Origin: a virus
Lineage: Duplodnaviria > Caudoviricetes
Reading direction: 5' to 3' (one strand)
DNA length: 60,803 bases
IMG/VR virus record: IMGVR_UViG_3300020044_008671
Span: 1 to 60,803 of that record
Shown here: positions 12,190 to 45,552 of the stretch, piece after piece
Numbering within the stretch: position 1 is the first letter of the stretch
Layout of the letters: every line of letters begins with the position of its first letter
Notes under the pieces: generated by a model
Seen by the model: the letters and a program-made list of their open reading frames with translations, nothing else
Databases searched by the model: none
Told to the model about the DNA's origin: nothing
Program-made: the position numbers and the translations under genes

Positions 12190-12197
12190 TAGATTTG
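12190..12197 (+). promoter_or_regulatory. -7 promoter element TAGATTTG
   Basis: Intergenic TAnnTTTG upstream of 12222; same octamer as at 9890. Confidence 0.7.
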
Positions 12198-12221
12198 AGG
12201 ACATAACGAACACCACCAACC

Positions 12222-13343: not shown

Positions 13344-13376
13344 TCTATAAAATTAACCAACTAAAAACTAAAAAAA

Positions 13377-14741: not shown

Positions 14742-14778
14742 TCAATTTAAAATCTAAAAAAATAGGAGGAAAATAATA

Positions 14779-15516: not shown

Positions 15517-15524
15517 AAAGAGTG

Positions 15525-15561
15525 AAAAGGGATGGGGGATAATATCCCCCTTCCTTTTTTT
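15525..15561 (+). terminator. Rho-independent terminator
   Basis: GGGGGAT-aat-ATCCCCC stem followed by a T-run. Confidence 0.85.
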
Positions 15562-15594
15562 AATTAAGCACAACAAACAAAAACACCAATAACC

Positions 15595-16701: not shown

Positions 16702-16757
16702 TAAGTAAGAGTGTATTGGCATATTCGGGTTTGGTGATCCGTTCGTGCTTGGTAATT

Positions 16758-16781
16758 TGCAGGACTTAGTTCCTGCATTTT
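16758..16781 (+). terminator. Rho-independent terminator
   Basis: TGCAGGA-cttagt-TCCTGCA followed by TTTT. Confidence 0.75.
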
Positions 16782-16793
16782 ACTTTTTATTTA

Positions 16794-16801
16794 TATCTTT
16801 G
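16794..16801 (+). promoter_or_regulatory. -7 promoter element TATCTTTG
   Basis: TAnnTTTG just after the terminator and before the ATG at 16816. Confidence 0.7.
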
Positions 16802-16815
16802 AACAAACAAGCGAG

Positions 16816-17676: not shown

Positions 17677-17687
17677 TCATTAAAAAA

Positions 17688-28248: not shown

Positions 28249-31200
28249 ATGGCAGAGATAGCAGAAGAAACCCCATTGGCGGTACAGCAAAATACAAACC
28301 AAGCATTAAAATCATTTCATAATGCGTGGAAGGATGATTTAAAGCTACCTCAAGATATAAATGAGTTTAAGAATGGGCTATCGAACGAGCAAGGAAGGAT
28401 GGCGTTTTGGAAGGCTTGGAAAGATGATATTTCCCTGCCAGACTTTGAAACTTTTAGTAGTAAGTTAGGATTTGATAAAGGTACAGCACAACCTATTCCA
28501 CCGCCTCCTGCAGTACAGGAAGAAATGCCGATGGAGACAACGCCTACCCAACAAGCTATAAAGCCAGGTATGGAAGGTTTGGCTGCTTTTACCAACAAGC
28601 AACAAAAGGAACAGGGCAGAATGTACTTTGATGATAAGATTAAGCCTTTAAAGATTAATCCGAATACAGAAGAAGACAATAAGCTTATTGAAGCCACTAT
28701 CAAAGATGCTCAATACCAAGCACCAACATTAAAAGAGCAAGAAAAGGAAGAGGTAAGCCTTGAAGCCTACCAAGAAAGAGTTGCTGCAAGGTACAACAAA
28801 GTAGCACTATCTATCGATGTTTGGATATTGCAGAACAAGACACAAGTTGAAGAAGAGATTCAAGAGAAAAAAAACGCAGATCCTGCGTATATCTCACTTA
28901 GAGGAAGTATTGAGGCGAAGACCATAGAATATCAACAAGGACTAGTTCAACAGGCACAACAAGCAATTGCAGGTCAGCAGATAAGTAAGGAGCAACAAGC
29001 ACAGATTAGTCAAGAGATAAATAAGAAGACGCAAGAGTTTAAAGATGCTGAATTTTTAAAGAGCAAAGAAGCGTTTGATAAGATTTCAGCTCCGCACATT
29101 AAAGATGGAGAGGATAAGTTAAAAGCGCAGTGGGATAACTACCAACGTGAGGCGATGAAGCCTAATACTGCTATCATCCCCCAAAAGATGCTTGACAATG
29201 CCCTAAAGCTTGTTACAAGTCCTCAGTTTGACGCACTTGGATATGAAGGTAAGAAGACTACGATAGCTAACTTTTGGAAGAGACAAGAGGCAGCCTTAGA
29301 AGGCAAAGGGCTTTCATTTGATAAGATAGAGGCTATCAAGGATGAGTATTACTATGCGGTAATGCCCAAGGTAGTTGTTAATGAAGAAAATCAAATAGCC
29401 CCTTTTGCTATCCGATCATTTGCAGAAGACCAAATAGAGGTATTAACACAACAGATTGCAGAAGCACAGAAAGCAGTACAAGTAGCGGACGCAGAGCAGG
29501 CGACATCACAAAGATTTTCTTCTAAGAACGACCTTGTAGTCCCAACTGTTACATCAAATAGAGCAGCAGACAAGGCAAAAGAAAACGTCTATAATTTAAT
29601 ACAAGCTAAAAAACATCTTGAAAACATTTTAGAACTATCAGATAATGAGTTCGCAGGTTTTTGGGCAGGTTTTGGAGCGCATGGCGTTCGCAATAAGATG
29701 CCATTCCTTTCTTCTATGCTTGACATTTCAGAGGCTGCAAACCTATTTACGGTAGTTAATAAATTAGATGCAGGACAACCGTTAAACGCAGGAGAAAAAG
29801 CTTTGTTAACAGCTTATTCTGCAGATCAGTCTATGCAGTCAGTTGCAAGAACAACGATGGCGTATAAAGCAGGAGAAGGTGTAGCACATTCATTGCCGTA
29901 CATGGCAGAATTCGTTGCTACCTCTGGTGTTTTTACAGGCACATACTCGGCAACAAAATTAGCACTTGAAGGGGTGTTAGGATCGTATGCTAAAAAAGCT
30001 ATGGTTCAAAGAGCAATCGTCAAGCCATTAGCAGGATTAATAGCTATCGAAGCTCAAACAGCAGCTAACCCACAAGCATACATCAAGGCAACACAAGAGC
30101 GTATGTTACCATCTTTTCAAGTAGCATTTGGCGAAAAGGGAGAGCAGATGGCAGCGATATTAGATAGAAACGCTGTAAATCAACTAACAGGATATAATAC
30201 AGGACACAACGAAGAGTTTTGGACTGCTTTGGTAAAAGGATTTGGCACTACCTCAGTAGATTTTGCTACAGAGAGAGGGGGGGAGTTAATTGAAAAGACG
30301 TTTAAATGGGCTGCAGGCAAAAAGAATATTCAGAAGTTCCTAACGCCTGACGTTATTAAGCGACTATCAATAGGACATTACCTAGAAAAGATGGGCCTAC
30401 AGCCTGATGCTGCAATAAAGAAGTTTATAGCAGAGAAGATGTCCTATCAAAGTTTTCCTGCTGAATTATTTGAAGAGTTTACAGCGATAGCTCCATCTAA
30501 CTTGATTACAGGAGATGCGCCAATGATGACAGGTATTGTCAATTATGACGATACCAACAAAGACTTCTTTGACTGGAAGGCGATAGGACAATTGACAGCA
30601 ACAGTAGCAGCAACATCAGCCTTATTAGGAGGAGCAGAGTTAGCAGGCACTATTGCATCAAAGGCTTGGCAGAAAACAAACCCTATCAAAGTAACGATGA
30701 GGGACAGAAACGGCAATGCGTTTAAGATAACCATAAAGCACTCTACACTTGCGCAGATTGTGAAGTTTAACACAATGAGCAAGGATGAATTAGTAAAGTG
30801 GAGAGACGAGGCGTTGCCAAAAATTGATGAAGAAGGAGATGCTAGATTATGGGTAACAAAATACGCTGATCAATTTATTAAGCAGAAGTCAGAACAAGAA
30901 GAACAAAACGCAAAGTCAAGAGAAAACTTATTAGGACAACTATTGCCTGATTTTACAGGGCAGAAGGCCACTTTTGAACAACAAGAAATATTTGATATCC
31001 TCCAAGCAAGAGTAGAAACATTGCTAGAAGAAGGATTAATACCACTACCAAAAAATGAAGAAGGAAACCAAAACGCACAAGGCAACCAACCCTTATCACA
31101 AGAAGCAGGGGAACAAGAAGATGGAACCGGCAAAGAAGGGGCCAAAGAAAATGAAGTAGGCAGATATGCAGCAGCTATTCCTACAATGCAGGAGTTGGAG

Positions 31201-34200
31201 GTTGACCTTCCGACAAGGCAGTTGGTAGGGCTTAGAGATAAAATTAAGGCTAATCCCGATAATACCGAAGCTATCATACAAGAAGAGGTAGATAGGCTTA
31301 AAGCGCAACAGTCGGATCCTGTATTTAAAGATCAGCCCGACTTTTTAGAGGCACAACAAGAGAAGATAGCAGCGCTAGAGAATGTAGTTGCTAAGATACA
31401 GGCTTCAACAAAAGTTACTCCTGGTCAACAAAACCAAATAATAATAAACCAAGATGGAAAAGCAGAAGAAAAACCCTTGTTGGAAGGGGTACAAAATGTT
31501 GGGAATGAAGGACAAGTCGGGCAAGAAAGTCCCGAACTGCGTACCCAAGAAGTCAACCAAGCAAAAGAAAGGGTAGATAAGTTTGTTTCAGAAACATTAG
31601 CACTTTCAACAACAGACCAAAATTTAAAGTCATTATTAGAGACTGATCCAAGAGCAGCACTACAAGACCTTATAGATTTCCATACAAATCAGAAGAGAGG
31701 GAAAAGTGATGTTTCGCAGAAATACCATCAAAGGGCTATTGATAGGTTTACAGCCTTACAAAACGATATTGACTTAATCAATCAAAATCAACAATCTGAA
31801 TTTAAAACCATAAGCGAATTTAAGGTCGGAGATATTGTTTCCGATAAAACAGGCGTAAATTATGAGGTAATGTCTCTTAATAACAAAGAGGCTAAGTTGA
31901 AAAACTTATCAGATACAGCTATGCCGGGAAGAATTGAAACCTACCCTATTGGCACTAACGCTAGGTTTAAATCTATATCTAAAAAAGTATTAACCCCTAA
32001 AAATAATCAAGATGAAAATGAAAATGGAATCCAAGAAGGAAGAAATGATGGAAAAGAAAATGTCTCCGAAAATGTACAAGGCGATGGAAAAGAAGGAGGG
32101 CAAGAAGTCGACAAGCAAAAAGAAGAAAAAGAAAGCCTGTTAAACCCTTCTGCACAACAAGACAAAAACAGTTCCAAAACTACTACGACAGAGCCTATGG
32201 TTATCTTTAAAGGTAACAGAGGCAAGTTAAACCCTGATGGGACTAAAAAGACAGCACACCCTGGAGTAGAGGGTGTTTTTGGAAGTACACAGTTAAAGGC
32301 TGCACAAAGATATGGAGAGGATATCTCGGAGTTTGACATTCCGATAGGCACAACCATAGAAACGGTAGAGCTAGAAGACAAAAAAACTCCTGTATCAAAG
32401 GCAAGAAAGATAGAAACAGACTTGATAAACAACTCTGATGCGCAGGTAGTAAGATTAATTACGATAGACGCAACAGGGAGAGAAGTTCAGTATATCATCA
32501 AAGACAAAAGCCTATTAGGTAAAAGGCCAACAGACGAAGTTACCGAAGCAGACGTTGTAGGTAAAGCCCTAATCCCTCGACTTAACAGAGGATTTTTAAA
32601 GGTAGGAGCCTTTATTCTAACTAACGAAAAAGCATTAAGAAATAAGGCTGACGATCTAATGTTGCAGGGAGAAGACTTGCGATTTAATATGACAATGCCT
32701 AATGGGGATAAAAAGACAATCAAAATAGTAAGTGAAGATGTTGTAAACGGATTTTATTCTCCATTAGAAAGAATAATCAACGAAACTAAGCTAGAGAAGC
32801 TTCCTGCAAAACAATGGTTAGATAAGTTTGGCAAAGGAGAAGAGGCTAAGTGGACCGGATTAGCAGAGTGGCTATCACAACAGCAAGGATCAGTCTCTAA
32901 AGCAGACATACAGCAGTACCTTAAGAACAACAGAATTAGTGTTGTTGAGGTTGTTAAAAGCGAGAACGACAAAAATCCAGAGTACCTAAAGCTAGTAGCA
33001 CTAGTGGAGGAGCTAAATAGTAAAGAGGGCAACAGAGTAGAACTGACAGATGAATTATACATAAACGGAGACGTAGGTAATTTCCTTAGTGCTGATGGAC
33101 TTACAATCAACATGGAAGAGTATGATCCAAAAAACTTTCCTAATTATACAAGAGAAGAATACGAAGAGCAGGCTAAAAAAGCAGTAGAGGCTCAAAAGAT
33201 TTTTAACGCAAATCAAGGTACGTGGGAAGATAACGGAGGTGTTAGTAGTGTTCGATATACAGACCAGCAAGAACAAGGAGAAAAAGAAAACTACAAGGAG
33301 GTGTTGGTTACGTTGCCATCAAAAAGAAATAAAGCAAAAGTTGTAGAGAAAGATGGGAAGTGGAAGATACAAAATTCAGACGGTAGTTTATCGCCAGTTT
33401 CTTTTACAGCCAAAAGTTTTGCAGAAAAAGCATTAAAAGAATATATAGAAAGAGAACAAAGTGGAGAGAGAACGGATAAAGAAACATTCAAATCCTCCCA
33501 CTTTGATGAACCAAATATTCTTGTTCATTTAAGAATGAATACTCGTACCGATGCAGATGGTAATAAAGTATTATTTCTTGAAGAAGTACAGAGCGATTGG
33601 GGGCAGATAGGGAAGAAGGAAGGGTTTGGCGAAACTTTTGTTATAAAAAGCAGAAACGGAATACCCGTTGGAAAAGAATTTTCTAATAGAAAAGATGCTG
33701 AAAAATACTTAAAAGAAAATTTTGATTTTGCTAAAGAAGGCGCTTATACTGTTCAGTCTAAAAATTCAACTCCTGCCGCGCCATTTGTGATGGACACAAA
33801 CGCATGGACCAAACTAGGGCTTAAGGTTGCTTTAAAAGAAGCAGTAAAGCAGGGTGCTGATAAGATTGCGTGGACAACAGGTGAGCAACAGAATGAAAGG
33901 TATAATTTAAGTAGGATAATTAAAAATATAGATGCTAAGATTGATGGGACAGCAGCATCAGATAACTCACCTATTTATAAGATAACATCAAAGTATAAAA
34001 GTGGGGAAGAAACAATTGGAAGTTATAGACAAGATGAATTAGAGGGTGTAGTAGGAAAAGAACTCGCTGAAAAGATTATCAAGAATAAGGGCGGAAAATA
34101 CGAAGGTGTAGATTTGCAAGTTGGCGGTAAAGGCATGAAAGGCTTTTATGGTTCGCCAACAGAAGGTAGTTTAGGTATAGTAGGTAATGTAGCTAAAAGT

Positions 34201-37200
34201 TTATTTAAGCAAGAGCCAAAAACGGTAACAATAGAAGTTTTAGGTAAAGTTCCCGATAGAACAAGCGTAGCTGATATTTATGAGGCAGGCGGAATGGAGG
34301 AGTTTAAAAAGAAAAACGTAATTAAATCCACCCAACACTCCATAGACATAACCCCCGAATTAAAAGCGCAAGTAGCACAAGGGCTTCCTTTATTTCACTT
34401 TGGCAATGATGGAGAGATATTAGGCTTTGCGTATGATGGTAAAATGTACTTGAATGGAGAGAAGCTTACGGCGCAGACTACCATGGAAGAGGCAGGCCAT
34501 ATATGGATCAATTGGTCAAAACAAAACCGACCAGACTTATATGATGCAGGGCTTAAAAAGGTAGCAAGTTCTAAATATCTAGTGCAAGTTTCTGCTAATC
34601 CTAAATACAAGGCAGAGGCTTTGAAGGTAGGTAAAGCAGGAAGTAAAGAGTACAACGATTACCTATTAGAAGAAGCGTTAGCTAAAGCTATTGCGGACCA
34701 AGGAGCATTATTTGTTTCTCAATCTAAGAGAGATTCCTTTAAGGAGTGGGTGCGTGAGATGTGGAAGGCAGTTACAAAAGCATTTGGCATCCAAGGTTTA
34801 TCATCAGAAGATATAGCTAAGTTGACTTTAGAGGACTTTGCTAAGATGGCAGCAGCAGATACTTTATCGAAAGAGAAGAAGGCAAAGCCAACTCAAGAAA
34901 TAAAGCCAACATTAGTTGCAGGAGAGGGAATGTTTCCTCTTAAAGATATTAATACAGACGAGGTTAGATTTCAGAATAGAGACAAGGCATTTAGTCCTGA
35001 ATCAGTAGCAAGGATTGTCAAAAACTTTGATCCTAACAAAATGGACGCTGTTGTCCTTTGGAAAGATCCCAAGGATGGCAAGACATATATGTTGTCGGGA
35101 CACTCTCGACTAGAGGCGCACAAACAACTAGGTAAAGGTCAGATTAAATCAAGGTTCTTTACAGGAACAGAGGCAGAGGCTATTGAATATGCTCGTACTT
35201 CTAACGTGCAAGGAACAAGAGAGACTAATACTGAAAGGGCAGCCTATTACAGAGCAAAGCGATTGGCAGGCGCTACAAACGCAGAAATAGAGGCAGAGGC
35301 AAAAGAACTAGAAGGGGCAAACGCAGCTAAAATCATTAGCTATTCATATTTAAACCCAAAAGGAAAGGTTGTCGCTGCATTACAAGCAAGCGAAGGAGCA
35401 GACGTTGCAAGTGAGAAAAATATCGAGGCGATAGCTAACTGGATTGGAAGTTCAAGAAAGCAATTTTCTATCTTGACAAATGCGCATGAAGATGAGATGT
35501 ATAATTGGCTTGTAGGAGAAGGCGTGTATGGCAATATTATTAAAAACAAATTGGTATTTACTGATCGCATCAATGCTGCGATAATGAAGAACACAGAGTT
35601 TGGAACCTTTAATGCTGAAAAGCCACTTAATCTCAACAATAAAGCAACTAAGACTTCTATTGAATTAGAGTACGATCAAGCAGTTGACGAGGCAACAAAA
35701 ACATTAGACGCAGCCAACAAAGCATTGGCAGCTAAAAGAACTGAATTAGTTACAAGAAAGGCTACAGCAGAAGAGATAGGCCGTATTCTTAAGCCATTCA
35801 ATGACGCAGTAATTGTAGCACAAAAGACATTAGTTGAGTTAAAGGCTAAGAAAGGAGAAGTGCTAGCAGCAGCAGCCAACCAACCATCATTATTTGACGA
35901 AATCCAAGAAAACATAGACAATGGAAACACCAATGAAGAAGAAGTCATCATTACCTTATCAAAGCCCGATGAGCCAATACAAGAAGATGATCAGGCTAGT
36001 GGAGGCGTTACGCCAAAACCATCCCAAGAAGACAATAAAACAAAAATAGATTCTATTAATGTTTTAGCTATAAAAGAGAGTGTTACAAACTTTGGTAGAC
36101 TGCAAGTGGGAGACAAGTTTTACATAGTCAAGCATAAAGCATTTACGCCTAGTTGGGATGGTGCTATATTAGGCGTTAAAACAGGTCCAGGCAAGTATAA
36201 GGTGGGTAAAAACGTCTTTGATATAGACGATACGGATATTGTTGTTTTAGAGTCCGATGTCATAAAAACACTTACCCCAACAGAATTCTATACTATTGCA
36301 AACGCAAGCACAAGAGCTGCAGGATGGGGCAATGCTTTAGTGGCAAAAGAGTTTCCAAAAGAGGTTCAAGATTTTTATTGGAGTGTTTCTGATAAAATGG
36401 TATCTATGTGGAAGCCTGGGCAACAATATAGTATTGGCCAATCTAAATATGAAATAGGTCTTATTACTACTGATGATAATGGACATAAAGTTGCACAAGT
36501 TACTGTAATAAAAGCGCCAACAAACTATTTTGGCGGATCCTCTATACAACAAGAAGGAGATGTAATTCTTAATGCTGTACCAACTCCCAAAGCTCAACCT
36601 ACACCTCCCCCAAGCCAAGAAAACAAACCCAAAGAGCTAACAATAAAAGCGAAGGGTGCTAAATATGAATATAGGGCGACTGATTCAACAGGCAACCATC
36701 TTTATATATCAGCAACAGGAACTAAGTCAACATACCCATATTTAGTGGTAGCTAAATACGGAAGTCAAAACTTCATTGTAGATATAGTAGACCATTGGGA
36801 GTTTCCTGATTTTGGGCAATATAAAATAGGGGCTAACAAACCTAATTTACAACCTACACCTCCGCCAAGCCAACCAAATCCTAAAGCAAAAAAGAGAGCA
36901 AGACGAGAAGTTGAAGAAGATCCTGAATTAGATCAATTACTAGGAGACTTATCGAATTTAGTACGCAACTCACGAAAAAATACAAACGTTAACTTTGATC
37001 CAATACAGGCAGCAGCCATAGCAGCTAAAGGAATTCAAATAGTAGCCTCTTACATAAGAAAAGGGGTGTATAAGTTTAAAGATATCATAGAGGAATTATA
37101 TGATAGAATTGGCGATACAGTCAACGATTTATACTTATCAATAAAAAAAGCCTATTTTTCTTATAACGCAGAAGCTGCTGACGAGATTGCAAGCCAAATG

Positions 37201-40200
37201 GATAATCTTAGTGATATTAGAAATATTACTTTGGCAGATATTATTCCTCAAGAAGAAGAAGACGAAGAAATAATTGAGGAAGAAATTGACAACGAAGATC
37301 CAATGTCTGAAAGAGACATGCAGATAGCAACGATAGCCCCATTTGCAAATAAAATACTATCAATGTTTGAAGATGGTTTTAAATGGACTTCAAGAACGCA
37401 GTATGAGAATATAGCTAAAATATATAAGATTACGGATCCTGCTATTGCAAAAGAAGGAGTTGAATATGCAATTACGCTACACGTTAAAAACATTGTCGCA
37501 CAAGGCAAGGAAAGCGGATTATCAGAGAAAGAGATTTACGACAAGATAGTTGACTTTTATGGCCAACAGCCTAATATGAGTCTGCGAACTAGCGAAAGCA
37601 TAGAGAATCAACAGTACTCAACACCTACTCCGTACTCATTTGCAGCAGCAATGTTTGTGGGTGGAACAGAAAATACAGAAGGCAAGCAGTTCTTTGAGCC
37701 ATCAGCAGGAAATGGACTATTGGTAAGTGCAATACCAAGCGCACAGGTAGAAGTAAACGAGATTGACGAAGTAAGAAATCATACCTTAACATTACAAGGA
37801 TTTAAGTTTGTAGGATCACAAGACGCAACCAATAGCTTTAACAACAAGCTAAAAGCTTTTGATGGTATTTTAACTAACCCTCCATTCGGTCCGATGGAGA
37901 CTACCATGTCGTATGATGGATTTAAGATTCGTGATAAGGCACATTGGATGGCGTTGAAAGCATTGGAGACAATGGCCGACAATGGAAGTGCAGCAATTAT
38001 TGTAGGAGGAAACAGCGAATACGAAGCCTCGGGATATATAGCAAACAACAAAGCGTTTATCAATTATCTGAATACAAGATATAATGTAATCGATATTATT
38101 AATGTAGATGGTAAGCTATACTCTAAGCAGGGGACTACGTTTCCTACGCAGATAATACTTATAGGCGGAAGAAAGTCCGAAGTAGGAAAATTGGCGTTTA
38201 ATATGCCAATTGAAAAACAAGCAGCAGTTAATAATTGGGATGATTTATACTCACGAGTAAAAATAGCACAAGATGAAAGAAATATTTTACAATCCAACTT
38301 GGATGCCGGACGAAAGGACAGCTTGCCTCCTAATGGTCAAATGCAGCCGGGAACACCGCCCCAAGAACAAAACCCAACTCCAATACCTCCTAGAGGACAG
38401 AGTGGAGGAAATGGTCAAATTACAGGAGGAGGAATGGCCGGGCCACGCAGTGGGACAAATGAAGGCAGAAATCCTAGACTCCCAAATCCACGACCAAATT
38501 CCACGAACCAACAACCCGAAGATATTAGCCCAATTCCTGGTGGAATACGGTCCGATGGGCCAAGCATTGAGGATGCCAGTAACCAAGACGAAGGCGAAAC
38601 GGTTAACCCAAGCCCAATTACAGGAATTGTGGGAGAGGATGGATTTTCAAAATCTACTCGATATGATGTAGAAGAAGTATTCGCTAGTAAAGTTGATGTA
38701 CCATATTTGCCAGTTTCTACTGCTAATGGAGGAGGAACTAGAATTCCTTCTACAATGGCATTACCTTTAGAGGCTGCACTATTACAAATAGATCAGCAGT
38801 TTGGAGGAATAGATAATTATGTTGCTAATAAGTTAGGCTATAAAACAATAGCTGATTTACATGAAGTTTTCTTAGCGGAGCAAATTGATGGCGTAGCGTT
38901 GGCTATCTATAATATCGACAAAGGAGAAGCGGTAATAATTAGCGACATGGCAGGAATTGGAAAGGGAAGAATAGCTGCAGGGATTATACGCTATGGTGTG
39001 AGAATAGGGAAGAAGCCTATTTTTATGACGCAGAAAGCTGCCTTATTCTCTGATATGAAACGTGATTTAATGGACATTAAGAGTGGGGATCTTGTGCCAA
39101 CGATTATGTCTAGTAATACCGAAGCTAATATAGTTGTTAAAGACGACAACGATAATGACGTTCTTATGCATAAAGCTCCAAGTTTGGAATTAGCTAAAAG
39201 AATATACGAATCGGGCCAAATGTTGCCTGGCACAGACTTTATGTTTGCCAACTATTCTTATTTTAACAAAGCAGCAGAAAAAGCAAAAAGAAATTTTTTA
39301 AAAGGGTTAGCAACAGATAACATCCTAATCTTAGATGAGAGCCATACTGCAGCAGGAGAAAAGCCTGCAAGAAGGCAGAAGAATGAAGATGGTACTGAGA
39401 AGATAAATTTAGCAACGTTTATGCGTAGTGTAGTTGAAGTTTCGCAAGGAGTAACTTATTTAAGTGCCACCTATGCCAAGACTGCTAAAAACATGCCTAT
39501 TTATGCGCTCAAAACAGCAATCAGAGACACAGGATTAAGCCCAGACGAAATTACGATAGCGATAGAATCGGGGGGAGTACCTTTGCTAGAGGTAATATCA
39601 AGACAGCTAGTTCAGTCGGGGCAATTAGTAAGAAGACAACGTAGCTACGATGGAATAAAATTCCAATATCCTGTTATTGGAGAGAATAATGAGGCTGAAA
39701 GAGATGCGCAATGGAAAGTCGCAGATGAAATCACTGCACTATATCGCAAGATTATTTCTTTTCAAGAAGAATATGTGCAGCCTGCAATAGAAGCTTGGGA
39801 TAGTGAATTACAACCAGTAGGAGGTGGGGCAGGCGCAACACAAGGAACGGTTAAAATGGGAATTTCTAACACCCCATTTGCAAATAAGCTATACAATACC
39901 ACTAACCAGCTATTGTTAGCATCAAAAGCGGATGCTGTAGCAGATATAGCGATAGCTGAACTAAAAGCAGACAGAAAAGTAGTGTTGTTTGCCATGAACA
40001 CGATGGAGTCGTTTATGTCTGACCAAGATAATTTAGGGCAAGAGATGGAAAGCCCTGATTTTATTGAGGTAACAAAAAAAGCTTTATCGGGAATTTTTAG
40101 AGTTACAATGACAACCATGTCTGGCCAAAAAATAGACATGATATTGCCATTAGACAGATTAACGAAGGAAGGGCAAGAGGAGTTCCGTAAGTTAGAGGAG

Positions 40201-43200
40201 GAGATAAACAACAAAAAGACAGGACTTCCACTAAGCCCTATCGATCACATCTTAAATAAAATTGAGGCAGCAGGATTTAGTACAGCAGAGATAACAGGGC
40301 GAACCAACAGATTAACGCAACAACAAAATGGGATGTTTGCTTTGTTGCCAAGAAAAAATAAAAACAGAAAGCAGAACGCAAGAGACTTTAATAACTATGT
40401 GCCTAACACGAAAAGGAACATTGTAAATGCCTTATTTATTAATCAAGCAGGAAGTACAGGAATAAGCTTACATTCAAGTAAGACAGTATCAGATCAACGA
40501 GAACGAACAATGATTGTTCTCCAAGCGCACCATGACATTAACGAAATGGTACAAGCTTTAGGTAGGGTATTTAGAACAGGGCAAGTAAATAACCCTAACT
40601 ATATATTTGTGTCAAGCGCACTTCCTGCCGAGTCTAGGCTGATGATGATGTTGAAAAGCAAAATACAAAAACTTAGTGCAACTACTACCTCAGATTCAAA
40701 AGATTCTACCGTTAAGGCAGAGGCGGACATTTTAAATATGTACGGAGATGGGATAGTAACAAGATATTTAGCAGACAATATATCGGACGATCCAAGTAGA
40801 CCAGGGGTAAATGAATTAATTGGAGATATATTAGATCTTAGGCTTCTTGTAATGATACAAGGACAAGAGGCTGTTCAGAACGAAGTAGAAAATCCTCAAG
40901 AAGATGCAGCAAGAACAGTGACAGGGCGGATAGCACTATTGCCTGCTGCTATGCAGAAAGATTTTTATGATACGGTTGTGAAAGATTATATTGAACTTAT
41001 TGACGATTTAGATAAGAAAGGCGAGAATAAGCTAAAATCACAAGCCCTTCCATTAAATGCTGTAACGGTGTCGAAGGAAGTATTTACGATTGGGCAAGGC
41101 GGCAGTTCAGTATTTGGGCAAGACTCTTTTCTTGAAATGGTAGAGGTAGACGTATTGAGGCAGCCATATTCTTCATTTAAAATTAAGGAGTTAATAAAAG
41201 AGCAGCTTGGCGAAGAAACAGCAGAGGAGCAGAAGGAGAGAATAGTGGCAGAGGCAATAGCTTACTATGATAACCAAGCATTGACATACAATCAACTGCA
41301 ACAAGAGAGAAAAGAACAAAAGATAGCAGAGGCTAGAGAAAAATATGAGGCTTTACCAAAAGAAGAGCTAAATGAACTACAACTAGAAGAGTTAAAAAAT
41401 CAATATGCTTTTATAGAGGCAGAAGCAGAGCAAAGAATGGGCGACAATATTGAGATAAATAGAGCTAAAGCCGAAAGAACAAAAAATATTATAACAACCT
41501 ATGTGCGTCAGTTTGCGCCTGGCAAACAAATGGTGGCTCCTGCAAATTCGGCTGATGGGACTACTACGGCAATTTCAATAGGGATAAATATAAACTACAA
41601 AGCAAAGAACCCATATACTTTATCAGGAATGAAAGTTCGTATAGCGTATGCTAATGCTATGCAATATCGCACTATTCCAATAAATAAGTCTAGGGAGTTA
41701 CAACCTATTATTGAGGCAACAGTTGCGTCAAGAACTCCGATGGATAGTTCTACTATATTAGAAAGATGGGACAATCTAAAGTCAAATAAAACAAGAGAAA
41801 AAGTTCCAATCATCACAGGAAATATATTACAAGCATACAAGGGAGATGTTTTAACATTAGGGAAGATCATTTCGTATAACACGTTGGATGGCAAAATAGA
41901 AAACGGCATATTGATGCCAGTAAATTTTGCCAAACCTACAACAACAAGTGTTCCTGCTAAACAGATGGCAGGCATCATTCAAAACCTAAACAAATATCAA
42001 ACTGTCTCAACAACGAACGGTGTAATATTTGAATGGGCAGATAAGGCAAAAACCGAACTAGAGATTTCTGTTCCTAGAAGCAAAAAGCAGGGGGGTATAT
42101 TTTTCTTAGATGAAGACATTAGAGACTTAGTAAATGGGCGTAACTTTAGATCAATGGGCAATCAAATGACTGCAAGTATGCCTGCATCTAACCTTCAGCC
42201 ATTGTTAAATATCCTTTCTGATAAACACAAGTCCGTTGTGGAAGTAAGGAATGAAGATCTGCCTGTTAGCCCTAACAATATGCGCAGTGGCAATGATATT
42301 GATAGCGCAAGAATAGGGCCTCCCGATGTTGACAGTAGAATGGAAGGAGACAAGCCATCTTTGCCTAATCGATCAAAGCTATTTGGGCAGATTGATGCAC
42401 TAAAGATCAATACAAAACGAGCGTATTCATTAGCACCTCCATTTGTATTTGCAATTGGCACATGGAACCTTGCTTTAGATATTCTTAAAGGAGCAATAAT
42501 CGCAGGTGATACTATCAACTTAGCTATCGACAAGACTGTTAGCTACCTTAGAGGACAAGCAGTAGCAAATGGATTAGCAATGAATGAGAGGGCAGTAACA
42601 GACTACCTTACATTACTTGCAAAGAAGCCTCATCTACTATTGAGCAATGCTGAGAAACGCATACTAAAGAGCAATGTAAAAAATCAGTTAATATTTCAAG
42701 AACTTAACTTGGAGCAGGCTGTATATGGAAGAATAATACAGACTCCAACATCTGCTGCAAGAAGAGGACTAACACGAGTGATGCCCGAGATGGCTATACT
42801 TGGAAAGGCGCAGAATGAAACTATCGCCAAAGGCACAGAAGCAATAGGCAGAGGAGTTCAGCAGCTTACACGCATGATGGGATCAAGTAAGTTTGCTCCA
42901 GTACGACTAGCAGCAAAGACATTGGCAGGAGTATTTAAAAATATCCAAAGAGACTTTGAGCATGTCAACAAAGCGGAAGAGATGTATGGCGCTATCGAAG
43001 GAAGGTCAATGTTAGATGCCGTTCAGTTGAGCAATATGCTTAAGTCAATGCTTGAAGGAGAAAGTCCAGATGCAATGCGCAGAATTGATGAGGTCCTTGA
43101 CCCTATATTTTACAGCAGAAACAAAACAAAGCAGCAGTTCTTTGATGAGTTAGACAACTTTTATCTATTGTCAACAGGGCAAACGATTAGTGGATCTTTC

Positions 43201-45552
43201 ACGCCTGCAGAAATGCAAGACTTGTATGACACTTATTTAGATCAAGGAGATGCAAGGTTTGACAATGTTATCACAAAAGTAGGCGACTTAACGCCATCTG
43301 AACTTGCCGTCTATGAGATGATACGCCAAGCGTATGACTTCATCCATGACATCAACTTTGTGATGGGTAACATCGAATATGAGACGTATATTCTTAACAA
43401 GGGCAACTACCATGCGAGAATGTATAACATATACGAGATGCCATCCGACATCAGCCAAGAGACGCAGCAGATTCAGAAGTACATGCAACTTGGTATGTAT
43501 AAAAAAAGAGGCGCACTTAACGAGTGGAAGTTGCAAGAGAAGATTGAAGATCCTATCCATGCAGTAACAAAAAGACTATATCAGACAAAACTCAATCTAG
43601 CAATCCACAATTATACAAGATGGGTAGTTACCAAAAGGCCTAACTTGGTAAGTAAAACTAAGAAGCCAGGGTATGTCTTGATGAAAGGAAGAGGGTATGG
43701 AGCATTTAACGGCAAGTTTGTAGCTAAAGATCTTGCGGAAGACTTTAAAGGATTCCACTTTAGTAATGAGATGATGCAGACTATATACCAATTTCCAAAG
43801 TATATAGGAGATCAGATGTATAAGTTCGCGCTTTTAAAACCATTGACAACAAGATGGTGGAAGAAAGTATTTACCGTATTTCAACCTGCAACACACATAG
43901 GTAACTATACAGGAAATGCCGTATTTGCTTCATGGATCGGAATAAGCCCATTACGTTTTAATACCAACTATTGGACAACAGCCCGACAAGAGATTAAGAA
44001 TAAGGGAGACCTATACTTATATATGATGTCCAAAGGAATGATAGGGACTGACATAGCATACGCAGAGTTGACAAGCAATCTAAACCAAGTAAAGGAAATA
44101 CTAGGCGAAGGACTACCGACAGCAGAAGAGTGGAAGAAGAATCCAATAGAGGCCTTTGATAATATGGCACAACATATCTACCACTCGACAGATAACATCT
44201 CTAAAGTGGCAGCTATGCAGAGTTTACTACAACTAGGATATAGCATAGACGTAGCTGCAGAAAAGGTAAAAGCAGGCTTCCAAAACAAATATAGAGTTGG
44301 AGGATTGTATAAGGTGTTCAGCGCAATACCATTGATAGGCCCTCCATTCGGGCAATTTGCAGGCGATCTTGTACGTATCATACGTAGCGGAGCGACAAAG
44401 ACTCCATTAACAGTAGGCGTTTATGTTTCTGCTATGCATGCATTGGCAGGATTGGCTCAGTATTGGGATGGAGAGGACGACAAGCGCAGAAAACTAAGAG
44501 AAGAAAGGCCAGGTGCGCCATCTATACCATTACCAGCATGGGCGATAGATAACTTAGGACTACCTGATTGGTTTAAATATATTCCTGTTATCAACTTCTT
44601 TACAGGCAACGTGCCGTTGAGTTATAAGATATTTGACGATCAAGAGCTAAACCTTGCTAGATTCTTAAGTCCTATGTATATCTACAACTCGTTGACAAGT
44701 GATGAGATTGACGACGCATTTAGAAAGTTGTCTCCATTGCCGATTGAAGCGATGCCTAAGACTGGAGATTCTTACAGAGACTTTGCTGTATGGAGTGCAA
44801 AAATGGTAAAACAGCCATTTATAGGACCGATAGTACAGTTATTTATAGACTCTGACTTTAGAGGACAGCATATTATAGACAGAGATCAAACTACCTTCCG
44901 ACAAAGTACCATGACAAAATCGGAAAGACAAGCTGCTGCTGCAGAGTTTTTACTTAGAAATAACGTTCCTTACGGAGCGTTAATGAACGACATATATCGC
45001 ATTAACCAAAGTGGACAAGACTATTATGGACGTACAAAGACTACAAACCAAGCAATATTGAGGTATTTTGGGTACAATGCGCAGATGTTTGATGAATCTC
45101 GCTACAAACAAGTTTCTCAAAAGGCAATTAATGCTAAGGTGTCTCAATTTAAACGATCACTAGATATGCTTAACCAATTGGTTGGAGACTACAAGAAAAC
45201 GCAAGAGTACGATAATCTACTAGACTATGTAAATAATACTAGAACATTTATCTTGGGTATCAACAAGTTACAAAAGGAAGGCAAAATAACGATAATGCAG
45301 CAGAGGGCTCTTTATCAATCATACATAAGAAAAGCTCCTGCAGGAAAGACAGGGTTACAAAAAATAAGCGACGAGGTATTTTTGACTAGATTAGTCAACA
45401 TACTTGATGAGCAGGCTAAAATAACGCAGGAGGCAAAAGTTGAAATAAAAAAGTCGAGAGGTGTATTGAAAAACGAGGAAATCAAATCTATCATCATAAA
45501 TAGCGAACTAGACAAATTTAATAAGATAAAAATGTTGCAATTCTTAAACTAA
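28249..45552 (+). CDS. Giant polyvalent DarB-like ejection protein, 5,767 aa, with ART-like, zincin-like, ParB-like, N6-adenine methyltransferase and strawberry-notch SF2 helicase regions
   Basis: MTase: QQYSTP, FEPSAGNGLL, ILTNPPFG. Helicase: DMAGIGKGR, ILDESH, LSAT, AGSTGISLHS, QALGRVFRTGQ. ParB-like: LSGHSRLEA. Zincin-like: TMEEAGHIW...EEALA. Confidence 0.9.
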   Translation: MAEIAEETPLAVQQNTNQALKSFHNAWKDDLKLPQDINEFKNGLSNEQGRMAFWKAWKDDISLPDFETFSSKLGFDKGTAQPIPPPPAVQEEMPMETTPTQQAIKPGMEGLAAFTNKQQKEQGRMYFDDKIKPLKINPNTEEDNKLIEATIKDAQYQAPTLKEQEKEEVSLEAYQERVAARYNKVALSIDVWILQNKTQVEEEIQEKKNADPAYISLRGSIEAKTIEYQQGLVQQAQQAIAGQQISKEQQAQISQEINKKTQEFKDAEFLKSKEAFDKISAPHIKDGEDKLKAQWDNYQREAMKPNTAIIPQKMLDNALKLVTSPQFDALGYEGKKTTIANFWKRQEAALEGKGLSFDKIEAIKDEYYYAVMPKVVVNEENQIAPFAIRSFAEDQIEVLTQQIAEAQKAVQVADAEQATSQRFSSKNDLVVPTVTSNRAADKAKENVYNLIQAKKHLENILELSDNEFAGFWAGFGAHGVRNKMPFLSSMLDISEAANLFTVVNKLDAGQPLNAGEKALLTAYSADQSMQSVARTTMAYKAGEGVAHSLPYMAEFVATSGVFTGTYSATKLALEGVLGSYAKKAMVQRAIVKPLAGLIAIEAQTAANPQAYIKATQERMLPSFQVAFGEKGEQMAAILDRNAVNQLTGYNTGHNEEFWTALVKGFGTTSVDFATERGGELIEKTFKWAAGKKNIQKFLTPDVIKRLSIGHYLEKMGLQPDAAIKKFIAEKMSYQSFPAELFEEFTAIAPSNLITGDAPMMTGIVNYDDTNKDFFDWKAIGQLTATVAATSALLGGAELAGTIASKAWQKTNPIKVTMRDRNGNAFKITIKHSTLAQIVKFNTMSKDELVKWRDEALPKIDEEGDARLWVTKYADQFIKQKSEQEEQNAKSRENLLGQLLPDFTGQKATFEQQEIFDILQARVETLLEEGLIPLPKNEEGNQNAQGNQPLSQEAGEQEDGTGKEGAKENEVGRYAAAIPTMQELEVDLPTRQLVGLRDKIKANPDNTEAIIQEEVDRLKAQQSDPVFKDQPDFLEAQQEKIAALENVVAKIQASTKVTPGQQNQIIINQDGKAEEKPLLEGVQNVGNEGQVGQESPELRTQEVNQAKERVDKFVSETLALSTTDQNLKSLLETDPRAALQDLIDFHTNQKRGKSDVSQKYHQRAIDRFTALQNDIDLINQNQQSEFKTISEFKVGDIVSDKTGVNYEVMSLNNKEAKLKNLSDTAMPGRIETYPIGTNARFKSISKKVLTPKNNQDENENGIQEGRNDGKENVSENVQGDGKEGGQEVDKQKEEKESLLNPSAQQDKNSSKTTTTEPMVIFKGNRGKLNPDGTKKTAHPGVEGVFGSTQLKAAQRYGEDISEFDIPIGTTIETVELEDKKTPVSKARKIETDLINNSDAQVVRLITIDATGREVQYIIKDKSLLGKRPTDEVTEADVVGKALIPRLNRGFLKVGAFILTNEKALRNKADDLMLQGEDLRFNMTMPNGDKKTIKIVSEDVVNGFYSPLERIINETKLEKLPAKQWLDKFGKGEEAKWTGLAEWLSQQQGSVSKADIQQYLKNNRISVVEVVKSENDKNPEYLKLVALVEELNSKEGNRVELTDELYINGDVGNFLSADGLTINMEEYDPKNFPNYTREEYEEQAKKAVEAQKIFNANQGTWEDNGGVSSVRYTDQQEQGEKENYKEVLVTLPSKRNKAKVVEKDGKWKIQNSDGSLSPVSFTAKSFAEKALKEYIEREQSGERTDKETFKSSHFDEPNILVHLRMNTRTDADGNKVLFLEEVQSDWGQIGKKEGFGETFVIKSRNGIPVGKEFSNRKDAEKYLKENFDFAKEGAYTVQSKNSTPAAPFVMDTNAWTKLGLKVALKEAVKQGADKIAWTTGEQQNERYNLSRIIKNIDAKIDGTAASDNSPIYKITSKYKSGEETIGSYRQDELEGVVGKELAEKIIKNKGGKYEGVDLQVGGKGMKGFYGSPTEGSLGIVGNVAKSLFKQEPKTVTIEVLGKVPDRTSVADIYEAGGMEEFKKKNVIKSTQHSIDITPELKAQVAQGLPLFHFGNDGEILGFAYDGKMYLNGEKLTAQTTMEEAGHIWINWSKQNRPDLYDAGLKKVASSKYLVQVSANPKYKAEALKVGKAGSKEYNDYLLEEALAKAIADQGALFVSQSKRDSFKEWVREMWKAVTKAFGIQGLSSEDIAKLTLEDFAKMAAADTLSKEKKAKPTQEIKPTLVAGEGMFPLKDINTDEVRFQNRDKAFSPESVARIVKNFDPNKMDAVVLWKDPKDGKTYMLSGHSRLEAHKQLGKGQIKSRFFTGTEAEAIEYARTSNVQGTRETNTERAAYYRAKRLAGATNAEIEAEAKELEGANAAKIISYSYLNPKGKVVAALQASEGADVASEKNIEAIANWIGSSRKQFSILTNAHEDEMYNWLVGEGVYGNIIKNKLVFTDRINAAIMKNTEFGTFNAEKPLNLNNKATKTSIELEYDQAVDEATKTLDAANKALAAKRTELVTRKATAEEIGRILKPFNDAVIVAQKTLVELKAKKGEVLAAAANQPSLFDEIQENIDNGNTNEEEVIITLSKPDEPIQEDDQASGGVTPKPSQEDNKTKIDSINVLAIKESVTNFGRLQVGDKFYIVKHKAFTPSWDGAILGVKTGPGKYKVGKNVFDIDDTDIVVLESDVIKTLTPTEFYTIANASTRAAGWGNALVAKEFPKEVQDFYWSVSDKMVSMWKPGQQYSIGQSKYEIGLITTDDNGHKVAQVTVIKAPTNYFGGSSIQQEGDVILNAVPTPKAQPTPPPSQENKPKELTIKAKGAKYEYRATDSTGNHLYISATGTKSTYPYLVVAKYGSQNFIVDIVDHWEFPDFGQYKIGANKPNLQPTPPPSQPNPKAKKRARREVEEDPELDQLLGDLSNLVRNSRKNTNVNFDPIQAAAIAAKGIQIVASYIRKGVYKFKDIIEELYDRIGDTVNDLYLSIKKAYFSYNAEAADEIASQMDNLSDIRNITLADIIPQEEEDEEIIEEEIDNEDPMSERDMQIATIAPFANKILSMFEDGFKWTSRTQYENIAKIYKITDPAIAKEGVEYAITLHVKNIVAQGKESGLSEKEIYDKIVDFYGQQPNMSLRTSESIENQQYSTPTPYSFAAAMFVGGTENTEGKQFFEPSAGNGLLVSAIPSAQVEVNEIDEVRNHTLTLQGFKFVGSQDATNSFNNKLKAFDGILTNPPFGPMETTMSYDGFKIRDKAHWMALKALETMADNGSAAIIVGGNSEYEASGYIANNKAFINYLNTRYNVIDIINVDGKLYSKQGTTFPTQIILIGGRKSEVGKLAFNMPIEKQAAVNNWDDLYSRVKIAQDERNILQSNLDAGRKDSLPPNGQMQPGTPPQEQNPTPIPPRGQSGGNGQITGGGMAGPRSGTNEGRNPRLPNPRPNSTNQQPEDISPIPGGIRSDGPSIEDASNQDEGETVNPSPITGIVGEDGFSKSTRYDVEEVFASKVDVPYLPVSTANGGGTRIPSTMALPLEAALLQIDQQFGGIDNYVANKLGYKTIADLHEVFLAEQIDGVALAIYNIDKGEAVIISDMAGIGKGRIAAGIIRYGVRIGKKPIFMTQKAALFSDMKRDLMDIKSGDLVPTIMSSNTEANIVVKDDNDNDVLMHKAPSLELAKRIYESGQMLPGTDFMFANYSYFNKAAEKAKRNFLKGLATDNILILDESHTAAGEKPARRQKNEDGTEKINLATFMRSVVEVSQGVTYLSATYAKTAKNMPIYALKTAIRDTGLSPDEITIAIESGGVPLLEVISRQLVQSGQLVRRQRSYDGIKFQYPVIGENNEAERDAQWKVADEITALYRKIISFQEEYVQPAIEAWDSELQPVGGGAGATQGTVKMGISNTPFANKLYNTTNQLLLASKADAVADIAIAELKADRKVVLFAMNTMESFMSDQDNLGQEMESPDFIEVTKKALSGIFRVTMTTMSGQKIDMILPLDRLTKEGQEEFRKLEEEINNKKTGLPLSPIDHILNKIEAAGFSTAEITGRTNRLTQQQNGMFALLPRKNKNRKQNARDFNNYVPNTKRNIVNALFINQAGSTGISLHSSKTVSDQRERTMIVLQAHHDINEMVQALGRVFRTGQVNNPNYIFVSSALPAESRLMMMLKSKIQKLSATTTSDSKDSTVKAEADILNMYGDGIVTRYLADNISDDPSRPGVNELIGDILDLRLLVMIQGQEAVQNEVENPQEDAARTVTGRIALLPAAMQKDFYDTVVKDYIELIDDLDKKGENKLKSQALPLNAVTVSKEVFTIGQGGSSVFGQDSFLEMVEVDVLRQPYSSFKIKELIKEQLGEETAEEQKERIVAEAIAYYDNQALTYNQLQQERKEQKIAEAREKYEALPKEELNELQLEELKNQYAFIEAEAEQRMGDNIEINRAKAERTKNIITTYVRQFAPGKQMVAPANSADGTTTAISIGININYKAKNPYTLSGMKVRIAYANAMQYRTIPINKSRELQPIIEATVASRTPMDSSTILERWDNLKSNKTREKVPIITGNILQAYKGDVLTLGKIISYNTLDGKIENGILMPVNFAKPTTTSVPAKQMAGIIQNLNKYQTVSTTNGVIFEWADKAKTELEISVPRSKKQGGIFFLDEDIRDLVNGRNFRSMGNQMTASMPASNLQPLLNILSDKHKSVVEVRNEDLPVSPNNMRSGNDIDSARIGPPDVDSRMEGDKPSLPNRSKLFGQIDALKINTKRAYSLAPPFVFAIGTWNLALDILKGAIIAGDTINLAIDKTVSYLRGQAVANGLAMNERAVTDYLTLLAKKPHLLLSNAEKRILKSNVKNQLIFQELNLEQAVYGRIIQTPTSAARRGLTRVMPEMAILGKAQNETIAKGTEAIGRGVQQLTRMMGSSKFAPVRLAAKTLAGVFKNIQRDFEHVNKAEEMYGAIEGRSMLDAVQLSNMLKSMLEGESPDAMRRIDEVLDPIFYSRNKTKQQFFDELDNFYLLSTGQTISGSFTPAEMQDLYDTYLDQGDARFDNVITKVGDLTPSELAVYEMIRQAYDFIHDINFVMGNIEYETYILNKGNYHARMYNIYEMPSDISQETQQIQKYMQLGMYKKRGALNEWKLQEKIEDPIHAVTKRLYQTKLNLAIHNYTRWVVTKRPNLVSKTKKPGYVLMKGRGYGAFNGKFVAKDLAEDFKGFHFSNEMMQTIYQFPKYIGDQMYKFALLKPLTTRWWKKVFTVFQPATHIGNYTGNAVFASWIGISPLRFNTNYWTTARQEIKNKGDLYLYMMSKGMIGTDIAYAELTSNLNQVKEILGEGLPTAEEWKKNPIEAFDNMAQHIYHSTDNISKVAAMQSLLQLGYSIDVAAEKVKAGFQNKYRVGGLYKVFSAIPLIGPPFGQFAGDLVRIIRSGATKTPLTVGVYVSAMHALAGLAQYWDGEDDKRRKLREERPGAPSIPLPAWAIDNLGLPDWFKYIPVINFFTGNVPLSYKIFDDQELNLARFLSPMYIYNSLTSDEIDDAFRKLSPLPIEAMPKTGDSYRDFAVWSAKMVKQPFIGPIVQLFIDSDFRGQHIIDRDQTTFRQSTMTKSERQAAAAEFLLRNNVPYGALMNDIYRINQSGQDYYGRTKTTNQAILRYFGYNAQMFDESRYKQVSQKAINAKVSQFKRSLDMLNQLVGDYKKTQEYDNLLDYVNNTRTFILGINKLQKEGKITIMQQRALYQSYIRKAPAGKTGLQKISDEVFLTRLVNILDEQAKITQEAKVEIKKSRGVLKNEEIKSIIINSELDKFNKIKMLQFLN
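31055..31159 (+). CDS. Nested +1-frame basic peptide, 34 aa: MKKETKTHKATNPYHKKQGNKKMEPAKKGPKKMK
   Basis: Manual translation; ATG after an A-run; covers a linker of the giant protein. Confidence 0.55.
   Translation: MKKETKTHKATNPYHKKQGNKKMEPAKKGPKKMK
31454..31576 (+). CDS. Nested +1-frame peptide, 40 aa: MEKQKKNPCWKGYKMLGMKDKSGKKVPNCVPKKSTKQKKG
   Basis: Manual translation; carries the CWxGY...GMK...GKxVPNCVP phage motif; A-rich leader aataataataaaccaagATG. Confidence 0.85.
   Translation: MEKQKKNPCWKGYKMLGMKDKSGKKVPNCVPKKSTKQKKG
32012..32143 (+). CDS. Nested +1-frame Lys/Met-rich peptide, 43 aa: MKMKMESKKEEMMEKKMSPKMYKAMEKKEGKKSTSKKKKKKAC
   Basis: Manual translation; leader taaaaataatcaagATG; covers a linker. 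Confidence 0.7.
   Translation: MKMKMESKKEEMMEKKMSPKMYKAMEKKEGKKSTSKKKKKKAC
35921..36049 (+). CDS. Nested +1-frame basic peptide, 42 aa: METPMKKKSSLPYQSPMSQYKKMIRLVEALRQNHPKKTIKQK
   Basis: Manual translation; leader aagaaaacatagacaATG; linker after the ParB/coiled-coil region. Confidence 0.6.
   Translation: METPMKKKSSLPYQSPMSQYKKMIRLVEALRQNHPKKTIKQK
36595..36873 (+). repeat. 24-bp direct repeats (36595-36618 and 36850-36873) flanking a small domain
   Basis: caacctacacctcc(c/g)ccaagccaa, 23 of 24 identical, both encoding QPTPPPSQ. Confidence 0.85.
38273..38671 (+). CDS. Nested +1-frame 132-aa protein over the MTase-helicase linker
   Basis: Present in the ORF track; amphipathic helical composition; leader aaaaatagcacaagATG; ends match the P/G/N/Q-rich linker. 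Confidence 0.7.
   Translation: MKEIFYNPTWMPDERTACLLMVKCSREHRPKNKTQLQYLLEDRVEEMVKLQEEEWPGHAVGQMKAEILDSQIHDQIPRTNNPKILAQFLVEYGPMGQALRMPVTKTKAKRLTQAQLQELWERMDFQNLLDMM

Follow-up and report, generated by a model that had tools for sequence, protein, structure and literature searches.

We analysed a 60.8-kb virus record from IMG/VR (the whole of this stretch is called the window below) and find that the open reading frame (ORF) at 38273–38671 is very probably a real protein-coding gene, nested on the same strand within a much larger gene and maintained by selection; this degree of confidence does not extend to its function. The host gene encodes a giant polyvalent protein, the reading frame of which we call frame 0. 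The ORF listing places the nested ORF at an offset of +1 to this frame, inside the linker between a methyltransferase (MTase)-like domain and a helicase-type ATPase. The four elements on which the argument turns are the following.

28249–45552, plus strand: giant host gene, an ORF of 5767 aa in frame 0, polyvalent protein.
38273–38671, plus strand: nested gene in the +1 frame, 132 aa, from ATG 38273 to TAG 38669–38671; predicted soluble alpha/beta protein.
38272–38697, plus strand: frame-0 tether read from the same DNA, 142 residues, joint from MTase to helicase, predicted to be disordered.
38252–38272, plus strand: A-rich leader, weakly structured and directly 5′ of the internal start; presumed initiation region.

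A sequence-only reading of this DNA had placed the ORF between the end of the MTase domain and the residues VPYLPVS, over a P/G/N/Q-rich linker in frame 0, and had remarked on how far its 132 stop-free codons stand out. Both claims are borne out. The frame-0 text over the span (...WDDLYSRVKIAQDE...) lies between ...WDDLYSRV... and ...VPYLPVS..., and G (20), P (20), N (12), S (12) and Q (11) are abundant among its 136 residues. The nested UAG ends 27 nt ahead of the first conserved helicase motif. The stop-free run around the ORF comprises 134 codons (38267–38671); the second-longest +1 run of the 17.3-kb giant gene, at 43364–43567, has 67, and the median over 473 runs is 8.

Composition explains part of this openness, because +1 stops need codons of the form NTA or NTG (leucine, isoleucine, valine and methionine; L, I, V, M), and these are scarce here: they make up 6.6% of the linker versus 14.7% of the giant gene, with L/I/V/M contents of 13% and 22%, respectively. 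The local GC content is 0.51–0.53 at the nested ORF versus 0.38 for the window. It could therefore be argued that the L/I/V/M-poor linker simply prevents +1 stops and that the ORF is an untranslated by-product, and indeed nowhere else in the giant gene are so few +1 stops expected (4.8 versus a median of 10.6). With the frame-0 protein of the window held fixed and synonymous codons resampled, 3.9–4.1 +1 stops are expected and the probability of none is 0.0015–0.005; shuffling the codons gives 0.002–0.007. These statistics come from the window alone, one of many windows scanned, and are suggestive, not decisive; the decision rests on relatives.

A profile of the MTase–helicase dyad retrieved 80 loci from IMG/VR and 80 from bacterial genomes. 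The flanking domains of the IMG/VR loci are 33–39% identical to those of the window, and the nearest giant proteins are ~35–40% identical to it in the dyad. Their linkers are poor in hydrophobic residues, 124–167 aa long and little conserved in sequence between groups (60 of 120 giant proteins inspected). In 80/80 IMG/VR loci the +1 frame is open for 110–171 codons across the linker and frame 0 contains no stops; the +2 frame over the linker contains 8–21. The +1 stops that the sequence-only reading had suggested looking for in homologous linkers are thus absent throughout the viral set. Grouped at 80% identity, the viral +1 translations form 32 clusters, all of them open, although 0.8–4.8 +1 stops are expected per cluster. 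Given the frame-0 protein, the per-cluster probability of no +1 stop has a geometric mean of 0.045 (range 0.0015–0.41, and hence up to 0.2–0.4 in some clusters, in keeping with a compositional effect); the per-cluster codon shuffle gives 0.0017. In the reverse test, with the +1 protein fixed, the expectation is 5.0–13.8 frame-0 stops, yet 32/32 clusters have none. Taken together, the two tests indicate that both frames are held open by selection.

The pattern of nucleotide change identifies the frame on which selection on the amino-acid sequence chiefly acts. In eight groups of related loci, 60–88% of the changes in the flanks (MTase and helicase) fall on frame-0 position 3. Inside the nested ORF, in seven of the eight groups, 41–50% hit frame-0 position 1 (the third codon base, or wobble, of the +1 frame) and 17–28% hit position 3. 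In the same seven, the fraction of single-base differences that are synonymous is 0.32–0.48 in the +1 frame versus 0.15–0.23 in frame 0. Purifying selection on the amino-acid sequence therefore acts mainly on the +1 frame. Antisense coding as the source of this phase signal is ruled out by stops, since the antisense frame with the matching wobble contains 4.6 stops on average and is open in 1/32 clusters. Two antisense ORFs or stop-free runs lie over the same stretch of the window (38287–38586, minus strand, 99 codons; 38415–38792, minus strand, 125 codons); antisense ORFs here look like by-products of composition, because they are open in merely 1, 2 and 6 of the 32 clusters.

The +1 translations also behave as a protein family. 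They have an ordinary make-up (E 13.8%, L 11.3%, W 2.3%), and the frame-0 translations of the same DNA contain 16% G, 10.5% S and 9.8% R. When similarity is scored with composition-based statistics, at least 40 bits are reached by 80 of the 496 pairs of clusters in the +1 frame, compared with 31 in frame 0 and 24 in the +2 frame. When a hidden Markov model (HMM) is trained on the other 31 members, its sole match among 183 six-frame pieces of the window is the nested ORF, at E 1.2e-11. Homologues, for which the sequence-only reading had proposed a profile search, were in this way found once the +1 linkers were translated. Members are 12–25% identical to the nested protein of the window, and the products are 103–159 residues long.

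From the 32-row alignment of +1 proteins (A3), AlphaFold2 predicts a confident fold, with a mean predicted local distance difference test score (pLDDT) of 90.1 and a predicted template modelling score (pTM) of 0.83. The model has two short strands, forming an N-terminal beta hairpin, and seven helices. The strands span residues 3–5 and 22–24, and the helices residues 14–20, 33–54, 58–69, 82–92, 94–100, 113–122 and 125–131. For frame 0 of the same 32 loci (A4), the pLDDT is 56.8 and the pTM 0.15, with no secondary structure. The sequence-only reading had expected an ordered +1 protein over a disordered frame-0 linker, and the predictions agree with it. A purely compositional origin, favoured by the low stop expectation, leaves unaccounted for the open frame of every cluster, the conserved ATG, the wobble periodicity and the surplus of synonymous changes in the +1 frame, the greater likeness among +1 proteins than among frame-0 ones and the pLDDT of 90; we consider it very improbable.

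If the +1 frame is coding, its product could begin at its own ATG or be reached from frame 0. An ATG is present within three alignment columns in 32/32 clusters, directly before an aromatic motif, M-x-x-Y/F-Y, and the nearest +1 stop lies 0–20 codons upstream of the first start codon of the run. The residues directly after the Met are likewise conserved, and in the model they form a strand with a pLDDT of 95. The leader is enriched in A at particular positions (−13 in 31, −12 in 28, −8 in 24 and −2 in 25 of the 32 cluster representatives; background 0.32), and this is consistent with, but not proof of, a translation-start site. A scan for internal promoters returned 5 sigma-70-like sites against 2.9 expected, which is uninformative. 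Translation would start independently at the internal AUG. The competing proposal is that ribosomal or polymerase slippage leads from frame 0 into the +1 frame, giving a truncated isoform composed of the N-terminal modules, the MTase and the small domain. A database protein of exactly this make-up exists: in P0184 (454 aa, one contig), MTase sequence passes into the small protein just upstream of the Met of the latter. An A-rich region also precedes the ATG. P0184 has the form that a one-base shift in a short A run would produce; known from a single contig, it may be a mutant or an artefact of assembly, or may hint at slippage. Against a frameshift, the start codon and the residues following it are conserved, and in four clusters (L036, L063, L066 and L073) only one codon lies between the upstream +1 stop and the ATG, leaving almost no room for a shift site. 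Nor did reading the sequences, which was not a systematic motif search, reveal a frame-0 stop or a long homopolymer that could drive a +1 shift. We judge a frameshift origin improbable, and retain initiation at the internal ATG.

A conserved signal might also stem from a nucleic-acid element, such as an RNA structure or a packaging or recombination site, instead of a protein. In its favour, the likeness of a lake-water relative to the window switches from ~98% to <80% at 38311, inside the nested ORF. Such an element does not yield a three-base periodicity, a conserved ATG and stop, protein similarity at 12–25% and a confident fold, and the start region is not unusually structured (the RNA fold of 38233–38312 is not stabler than shuffles, z +0.58). 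We regard this explanation as close to negligible. The lake-water contigs themselves, from four metagenome runs, are ~98% like the window over 37303–38311 and then drop below the 80% likeness threshold. In one of them, of 8295 nt, 491 letters of the window (38311–38803) are swapped for 488 others, so that the reading frame is kept. Position 38311 is likely a recombination boundary.

Several points weigh against reading 38273–38671 as a selected and translated gene. Its support is comparative and from predicted structure, and no RNA run containing the locus was among those listed. The joint probability over clusters is overstated, because the 32 clusters share ancestry. One of the eight groups, E (2 loci, 72 changes), is without clear phase (0.36/0.22/0.42 over the three frame-0 positions), and its synonymous fractions in the two frames, 0.41 versus 0.38, are close. 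The phase test covers other lineages of the family and not that of the window, because no relative above ~40% protein identity was obtained with its DNA. Synonymous codon usage is nearer that of the flanks in frame 0 for 20/32 clusters; the codon usage of both frames fits worse than the flanks, and this does not settle which frame is older. The frame-0 control for the structure prediction is not helix-prone, and would not reveal a general tendency of E/L/Q-rich alignments to score well. The A-rich leader bases also code for the conserved end of the MTase. As to function, the window member is not acidic (pI 6.3 versus a family median of 4.4) and no family, fold or context gives a clue.

The giant gene lies in a block of virion genes; its neighbours encode a portal, a large terminase, a virion structural protein and tail proteins, and the window also encodes a DnaB-type helicase. 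Its product shows a DarB-like dyad architecture, as judged from motifs and Pfam matches, in which an NPPF-type adenine MTase lies N-terminal to a superfamily 2 (SF2) ATPase. The invariant MTase columns given below were scored over 16 giant proteins.

37558–38260, plus strand: N6-adenine methyltransferase-like domain, frame 0, with motifs I and IV.
37696–37716, plus strand: MTase motif I, EPSAGNG, with invariant columns E3150, P3151, A3153, G3154 and G3156.
37876–37890, plus strand: MTase motif IV, NPPFG, with invariant columns N3210, P3211, P3212, F3213 and G3214.
38926–41028, plus strand: strawberry-notch-type SF2 ATPase, frame 0, made up of Pfam AAA_34 and Helicase_C_4.
38926–39672, plus strand: AAA_34 (PF13872), Pfam E 1.4e-18.
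40279–41028, plus strand: Helicase_C_4 (PF13871), Pfam E 1.1e-27.

In the Pfam scan of the window the MTase models all scored below threshold; among its homologues, P0184 and P0120 do match MTase families of Pfam. No Pfam family was matched at E <= 0.001 over residues 1–2900 of the giant protein (28249–36948), though homologues hold several LPD-type domains. Homologues of the giant protein are 3273–7236 aa long, with the polyvalent-protein Pfam domains LPD38, InPase and ddrB-ParB among their domains. An antisense run of 160 codons lies inside the helicase (39762–40244, minus strand).

The nested gene marks one clade of MTase–helicase dyads. Among the bacterial-genome loci, 20/80 have a +1 run of 106–189 codons and 17/80 match the family HMM in the +1 frame; these 17 are from Bacteroidales, Porphyromonadaceae, Muribaculaceae, Tannerellaceae and Prevotella, and include contigs from metagenome-assembled genomes (MAGs) labelled Saccharibacteria, Ignavibacteriaceae and Bacillota. 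The genome loci of the clade are mostly from Bacteroidota, with a few contigs from MAGs labelled as other phyla. Short linkers of 27–51 aa are found in 46/80 genome loci. The other 14 have long in-frame hydrophobic inserts (L/I/V/M 18–31%) with +1 runs of 18–87 codons, and they are unsuited as composition-matched controls because the inserts are hydrophobic, in-frame domains. In a tree of the flanking domains (111 rows, L147 having been dropped for masked letters; searched quickly and rooted only at the midpoint), a branch with 100% support in the Shimodaira–Hasegawa-like approximate likelihood ratio test (SH-aLRT) has on one side the 49 HMM-positive rows together with 3 other rows with long ORFs. 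The 59 dyads on the opposite side have short linkers or in-frame inserts. This fits either a single gain or a single loss of the nested gene. The window itself sits on a long branch, and the position of the nested gene has been kept through more than one substitution per site. Searches of viral contigs, phage DNA and metagenome contigs with a single protein returned no closer relative of the window, and an exact search of metagenome contigs with a 30-nt pattern gave no match.

The three further long-ORF rows on the side of the window (L098, L099 and L101) are high-GC contigs from MAGs labelled Myxococcota or Pseudomonadota, with +1 ORFs of 106–189 codons over G/A/R/P-rich linkers. Two of them, L099 and L101, resemble each other (e.g. 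...ALEMSQEQAPE...), and the phase signal of this pair is weak (0.37/0.32/0.32). None of the three has significant similarity to the family HMM, and they are possible members of the family. In the environmental Bacteroidota clade that lacks the nested gene, the junction often holds in-frame hydrophobic inserts of 117–287 aa.

Junction-insert loci: L114, L116, L118, L120, L128, L141, L143, L144, L146, L148, L150, L156 and L158.

Several of these inserts have in common a pattern, ...Y..LK.KYPDA.LL....D.Y.F.EDA..., which may recall MutS domain I. In one Bacteroidia MAG (L092) the linker is 154 aa long with a +1 run of 36 codons and no HMM match, and frame 0 there looks, from its sequence, like a different folded insert. 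The MTase–helicase junction seems to be an insertion hot spot.

Small proteins of this family have already entered databases. The profile matches 41 called proteins of 70–125 aa, which are 57–100% identical to the nested ORFs of one subclade; 38 of the 41 start with MEQK or MAQK at the same Met, and one is RefSeq WP_418550841.1, 'hypothetical protein [Prevotella sp.]'. The nested ORF is also present in a cultured temperate Bacteroides phage, BS-TP4 (PQ571277.1), inside gp3 (1511–17686), with an HMM E of 8e-28; it spans about 10044–10391 and would give a product of 115 aa. In that record gp3 is annotated 'hypothetical protein' and the nested ORF is unannotated. BS-TP4 has been detected in 31.3% of 930 gut viromes according to the main text of its description, where the words 'giant' and 'polyvalent' do not occur (PMC12694917). 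In another protein, P0185 (455 aa, 5 contigs), the small-protein domain lies in frame at the C-terminus, 43–51% identical to nested ORFs. The N-terminal 330 aa of P0185 match nothing in Pfam, PHROG, PDB or the giant proteins, and since the domain follows this unrelated sequence in frame, it can exist outside the overlap. P0185 was not found in viral contigs or in 400 other Bacteroidales genomes, and in the centre genome, G001, the nested ORF alone matched. The genome-contig search did not find P0140.

Outside its own members the family has no recognisable relatives in the resources searched. With the window ORF alone, phmmer against 1.84 billion representatives gave one borderline match (E 8e-4), and a Pfam scan gave chance matches only. 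None of the 32 members matches any PHROG or PADLOC model, and each of their Pfam or NCBIfam matches is confined to a single member with a weak E-value. A weak lead to GNAT_C from the ESM Atlas (score 0.91, 25% of members) was unsupported by Pfam scans of the 32 members and was rejected; for P0134 the Atlas gave no usable match. At the level of structure, Foldseek with the pLDDT-90 model found nothing in the PDB at E <= 0.001, a wide comparison against 48,161 chains reached a best Z of 3.5, the best E among the predicted viral structures of BFVD was 0.5, and a PDB sequence profile search found nothing below E 0.16. No DNA-mimic chain of the Ocr or ArdA type is among the matches listed by the Foldseek PDB, wide structure or PDB profile searches. 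The family is hydrophilic (grand average of hydropathy, GRAVY, −0.3 to −1.0) and its members are devoid of signal sequences; the N-terminus of the nested protein, MKEIFYNPTWMPDERT, shows no hydrophobic signal and no lipobox.

We propose that ribosomes starting at 28249 would read frame 0 through the stretch as a disordered tether of ~140 residues from the MTase to the helicase, and that other ribosomes would start at the internal AUG at 38273, make a soluble 132-aa protein and stop at the UAG. The small protein would be made only from the mRNA of the giant gene, and the two products would therefore be coupled in time and genetically linked. In the latter respect the sequence-only reading, which had called the ORF genetically inseparable from the dyad, was correct, the gene being written through the MTase–helicase linker. 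The partner role put forward in the sequence-only reading (a chaperone, inhibitor or packaging adaptor of the DarB-like module) is plausible, though neither a known family nor a known fold lends it support. The likeliest single function is an accessory role to the polyvalent protein (as an adaptor for assembly or packaging, as a chaperone, or as a brake on the dyad or another domain until packaging or delivery), although we advance it tentatively and at less than even chance. A complex prediction of the MTase domain plus the helicase N-lobe with the small protein scored 0.08, which says nothing either way. An independent anti-defence or regulatory role is our next guess, and an unlikely one.

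Put more generally, the nested gene could be real and its product independent of the giant protein (a DNA-mimic-like anti-restriction protein, another anti-defence effector or a regulator), with the overlap a frozen accident. The occurrence of the domain in frame at the C-terminus of the unrelated P0185 means that it can work outside the overlap. Most members are strongly acidic, with a median pI of 4.4 and a net charge down to −24, and the host gene belongs to an anti-restriction-type module, as described in the main text of Iyer et al. 2017 (PMC5512222). However, the pI is close to neutral in three members, 6.3 in that of the window and 6.8 and 7.9 in two more, and the exact position of the gene has been retained over the great divergence of its clade. 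We think independence of the giant protein rather doubtful. About as doubtful is the boldest form of a dependent product, in which the linker would exist only because a gene is written through it, and a product with a new fold, possibly arisen de novo in the +1 frame of a low-complexity tether, would be an obligate partner, an adaptor or a brake, controlling the packaging or DNA activity of the giant protein.

Nested +1 phage genes and overprinted pairs of an ordered and a disordered protein are already known kinds. In phage lambda, Rz1 lies within Rz, at an offset of +1, and encodes a secreted lipoprotein; Rz and Rz1 bind each other and span the periplasm. The present case is alike in that a same-strand +1 gene lies wholly inside a phage gene with, as proposed here, its own internal start on one mRNA. 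It differs in that the nested protein, with the N-terminus MKEIFYNPTWMPDE, lacks a signal peptide and lipobox, and in that the host frame is here merely an interdomain tether of a 5767-aa protein. In phage P1, the packaging of DarB needs separately encoded accessory Dar proteins, whereas here the coding sequence of the dyad contains that of the candidate accessory protein. The likeness to the P1 DarB or polyvalent MTase–SWI2/SNF2 dyad (PMC5512222) lies in an NPPF-type adenine MTase fused to an SF2 ATPase, and in a location among virion genes; for packaging in the virion and protection of incoming DNA from restriction, this position among portal, structural and tail genes is the single pointer here. 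The words 'overlapping', 'frameshift' and 'linker' are absent from that main text, which to this extent describes no nested gene (Iyer et al. 2017, PMC5512222).

Overprinted gene pairs with one ordered and one disordered partner have been described in viruses (PMC8227390; 10.1101/229690). Our case resembles such pairs in combining a folded with a disordered frame, with selection per nucleotide mainly from one frame, and is unlike most of them, which come from small viral genomes and give two separate proteins, in that the disordered partner is a linker in a giant protein of a double-stranded DNA phage. Same-strand nested products are also known in bacteria, an example being GndA within E. coli gnd, and are described as peptides of <50 residues (PMC11230408). 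As with GndA, an out-of-frame internal ORF lies in an annotated same-strand coding sequence; unlike products of this type as so described, the present ones have 103–159 residues, a confident predicted fold and a deeply conserved family. Full-text literature searches, covering main texts, returned no description of a gene nested in an MTase–helicase dyad. What is new here is that the tether between two domains of a giant phage protein also encodes, in another frame, a conserved, folded protein without a known family.

What looks like a 'disordered linker' in a giant phage protein can thus be the imprint of a second gene. ORFs that lie within other genes are dropped by gene callers; in BS-TP4, for instance, the annotation includes gp3 but lacks the gene nested in it. 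The DarB-like anti-restriction module gains an additional, unstudied component. With a cultured phage, BS-TP4, and its host, Bacteroides salyersiae BG8, there is a tractable case for how ribosomes start inside a translated ORF of 17 kb in Bacteroidia, which are blind to Shine–Dalgarno sequences, and for how the same stretch of DNA can encode both a folded and a disordered protein. If the more ambitious interpretation of an obligate partner is true, the coding sequence of a giant, injected anti-defence protein would include that of the protein's regulator, and the same logic may extend to other disordered linkers of giant proteins in phages and conjugative elements.

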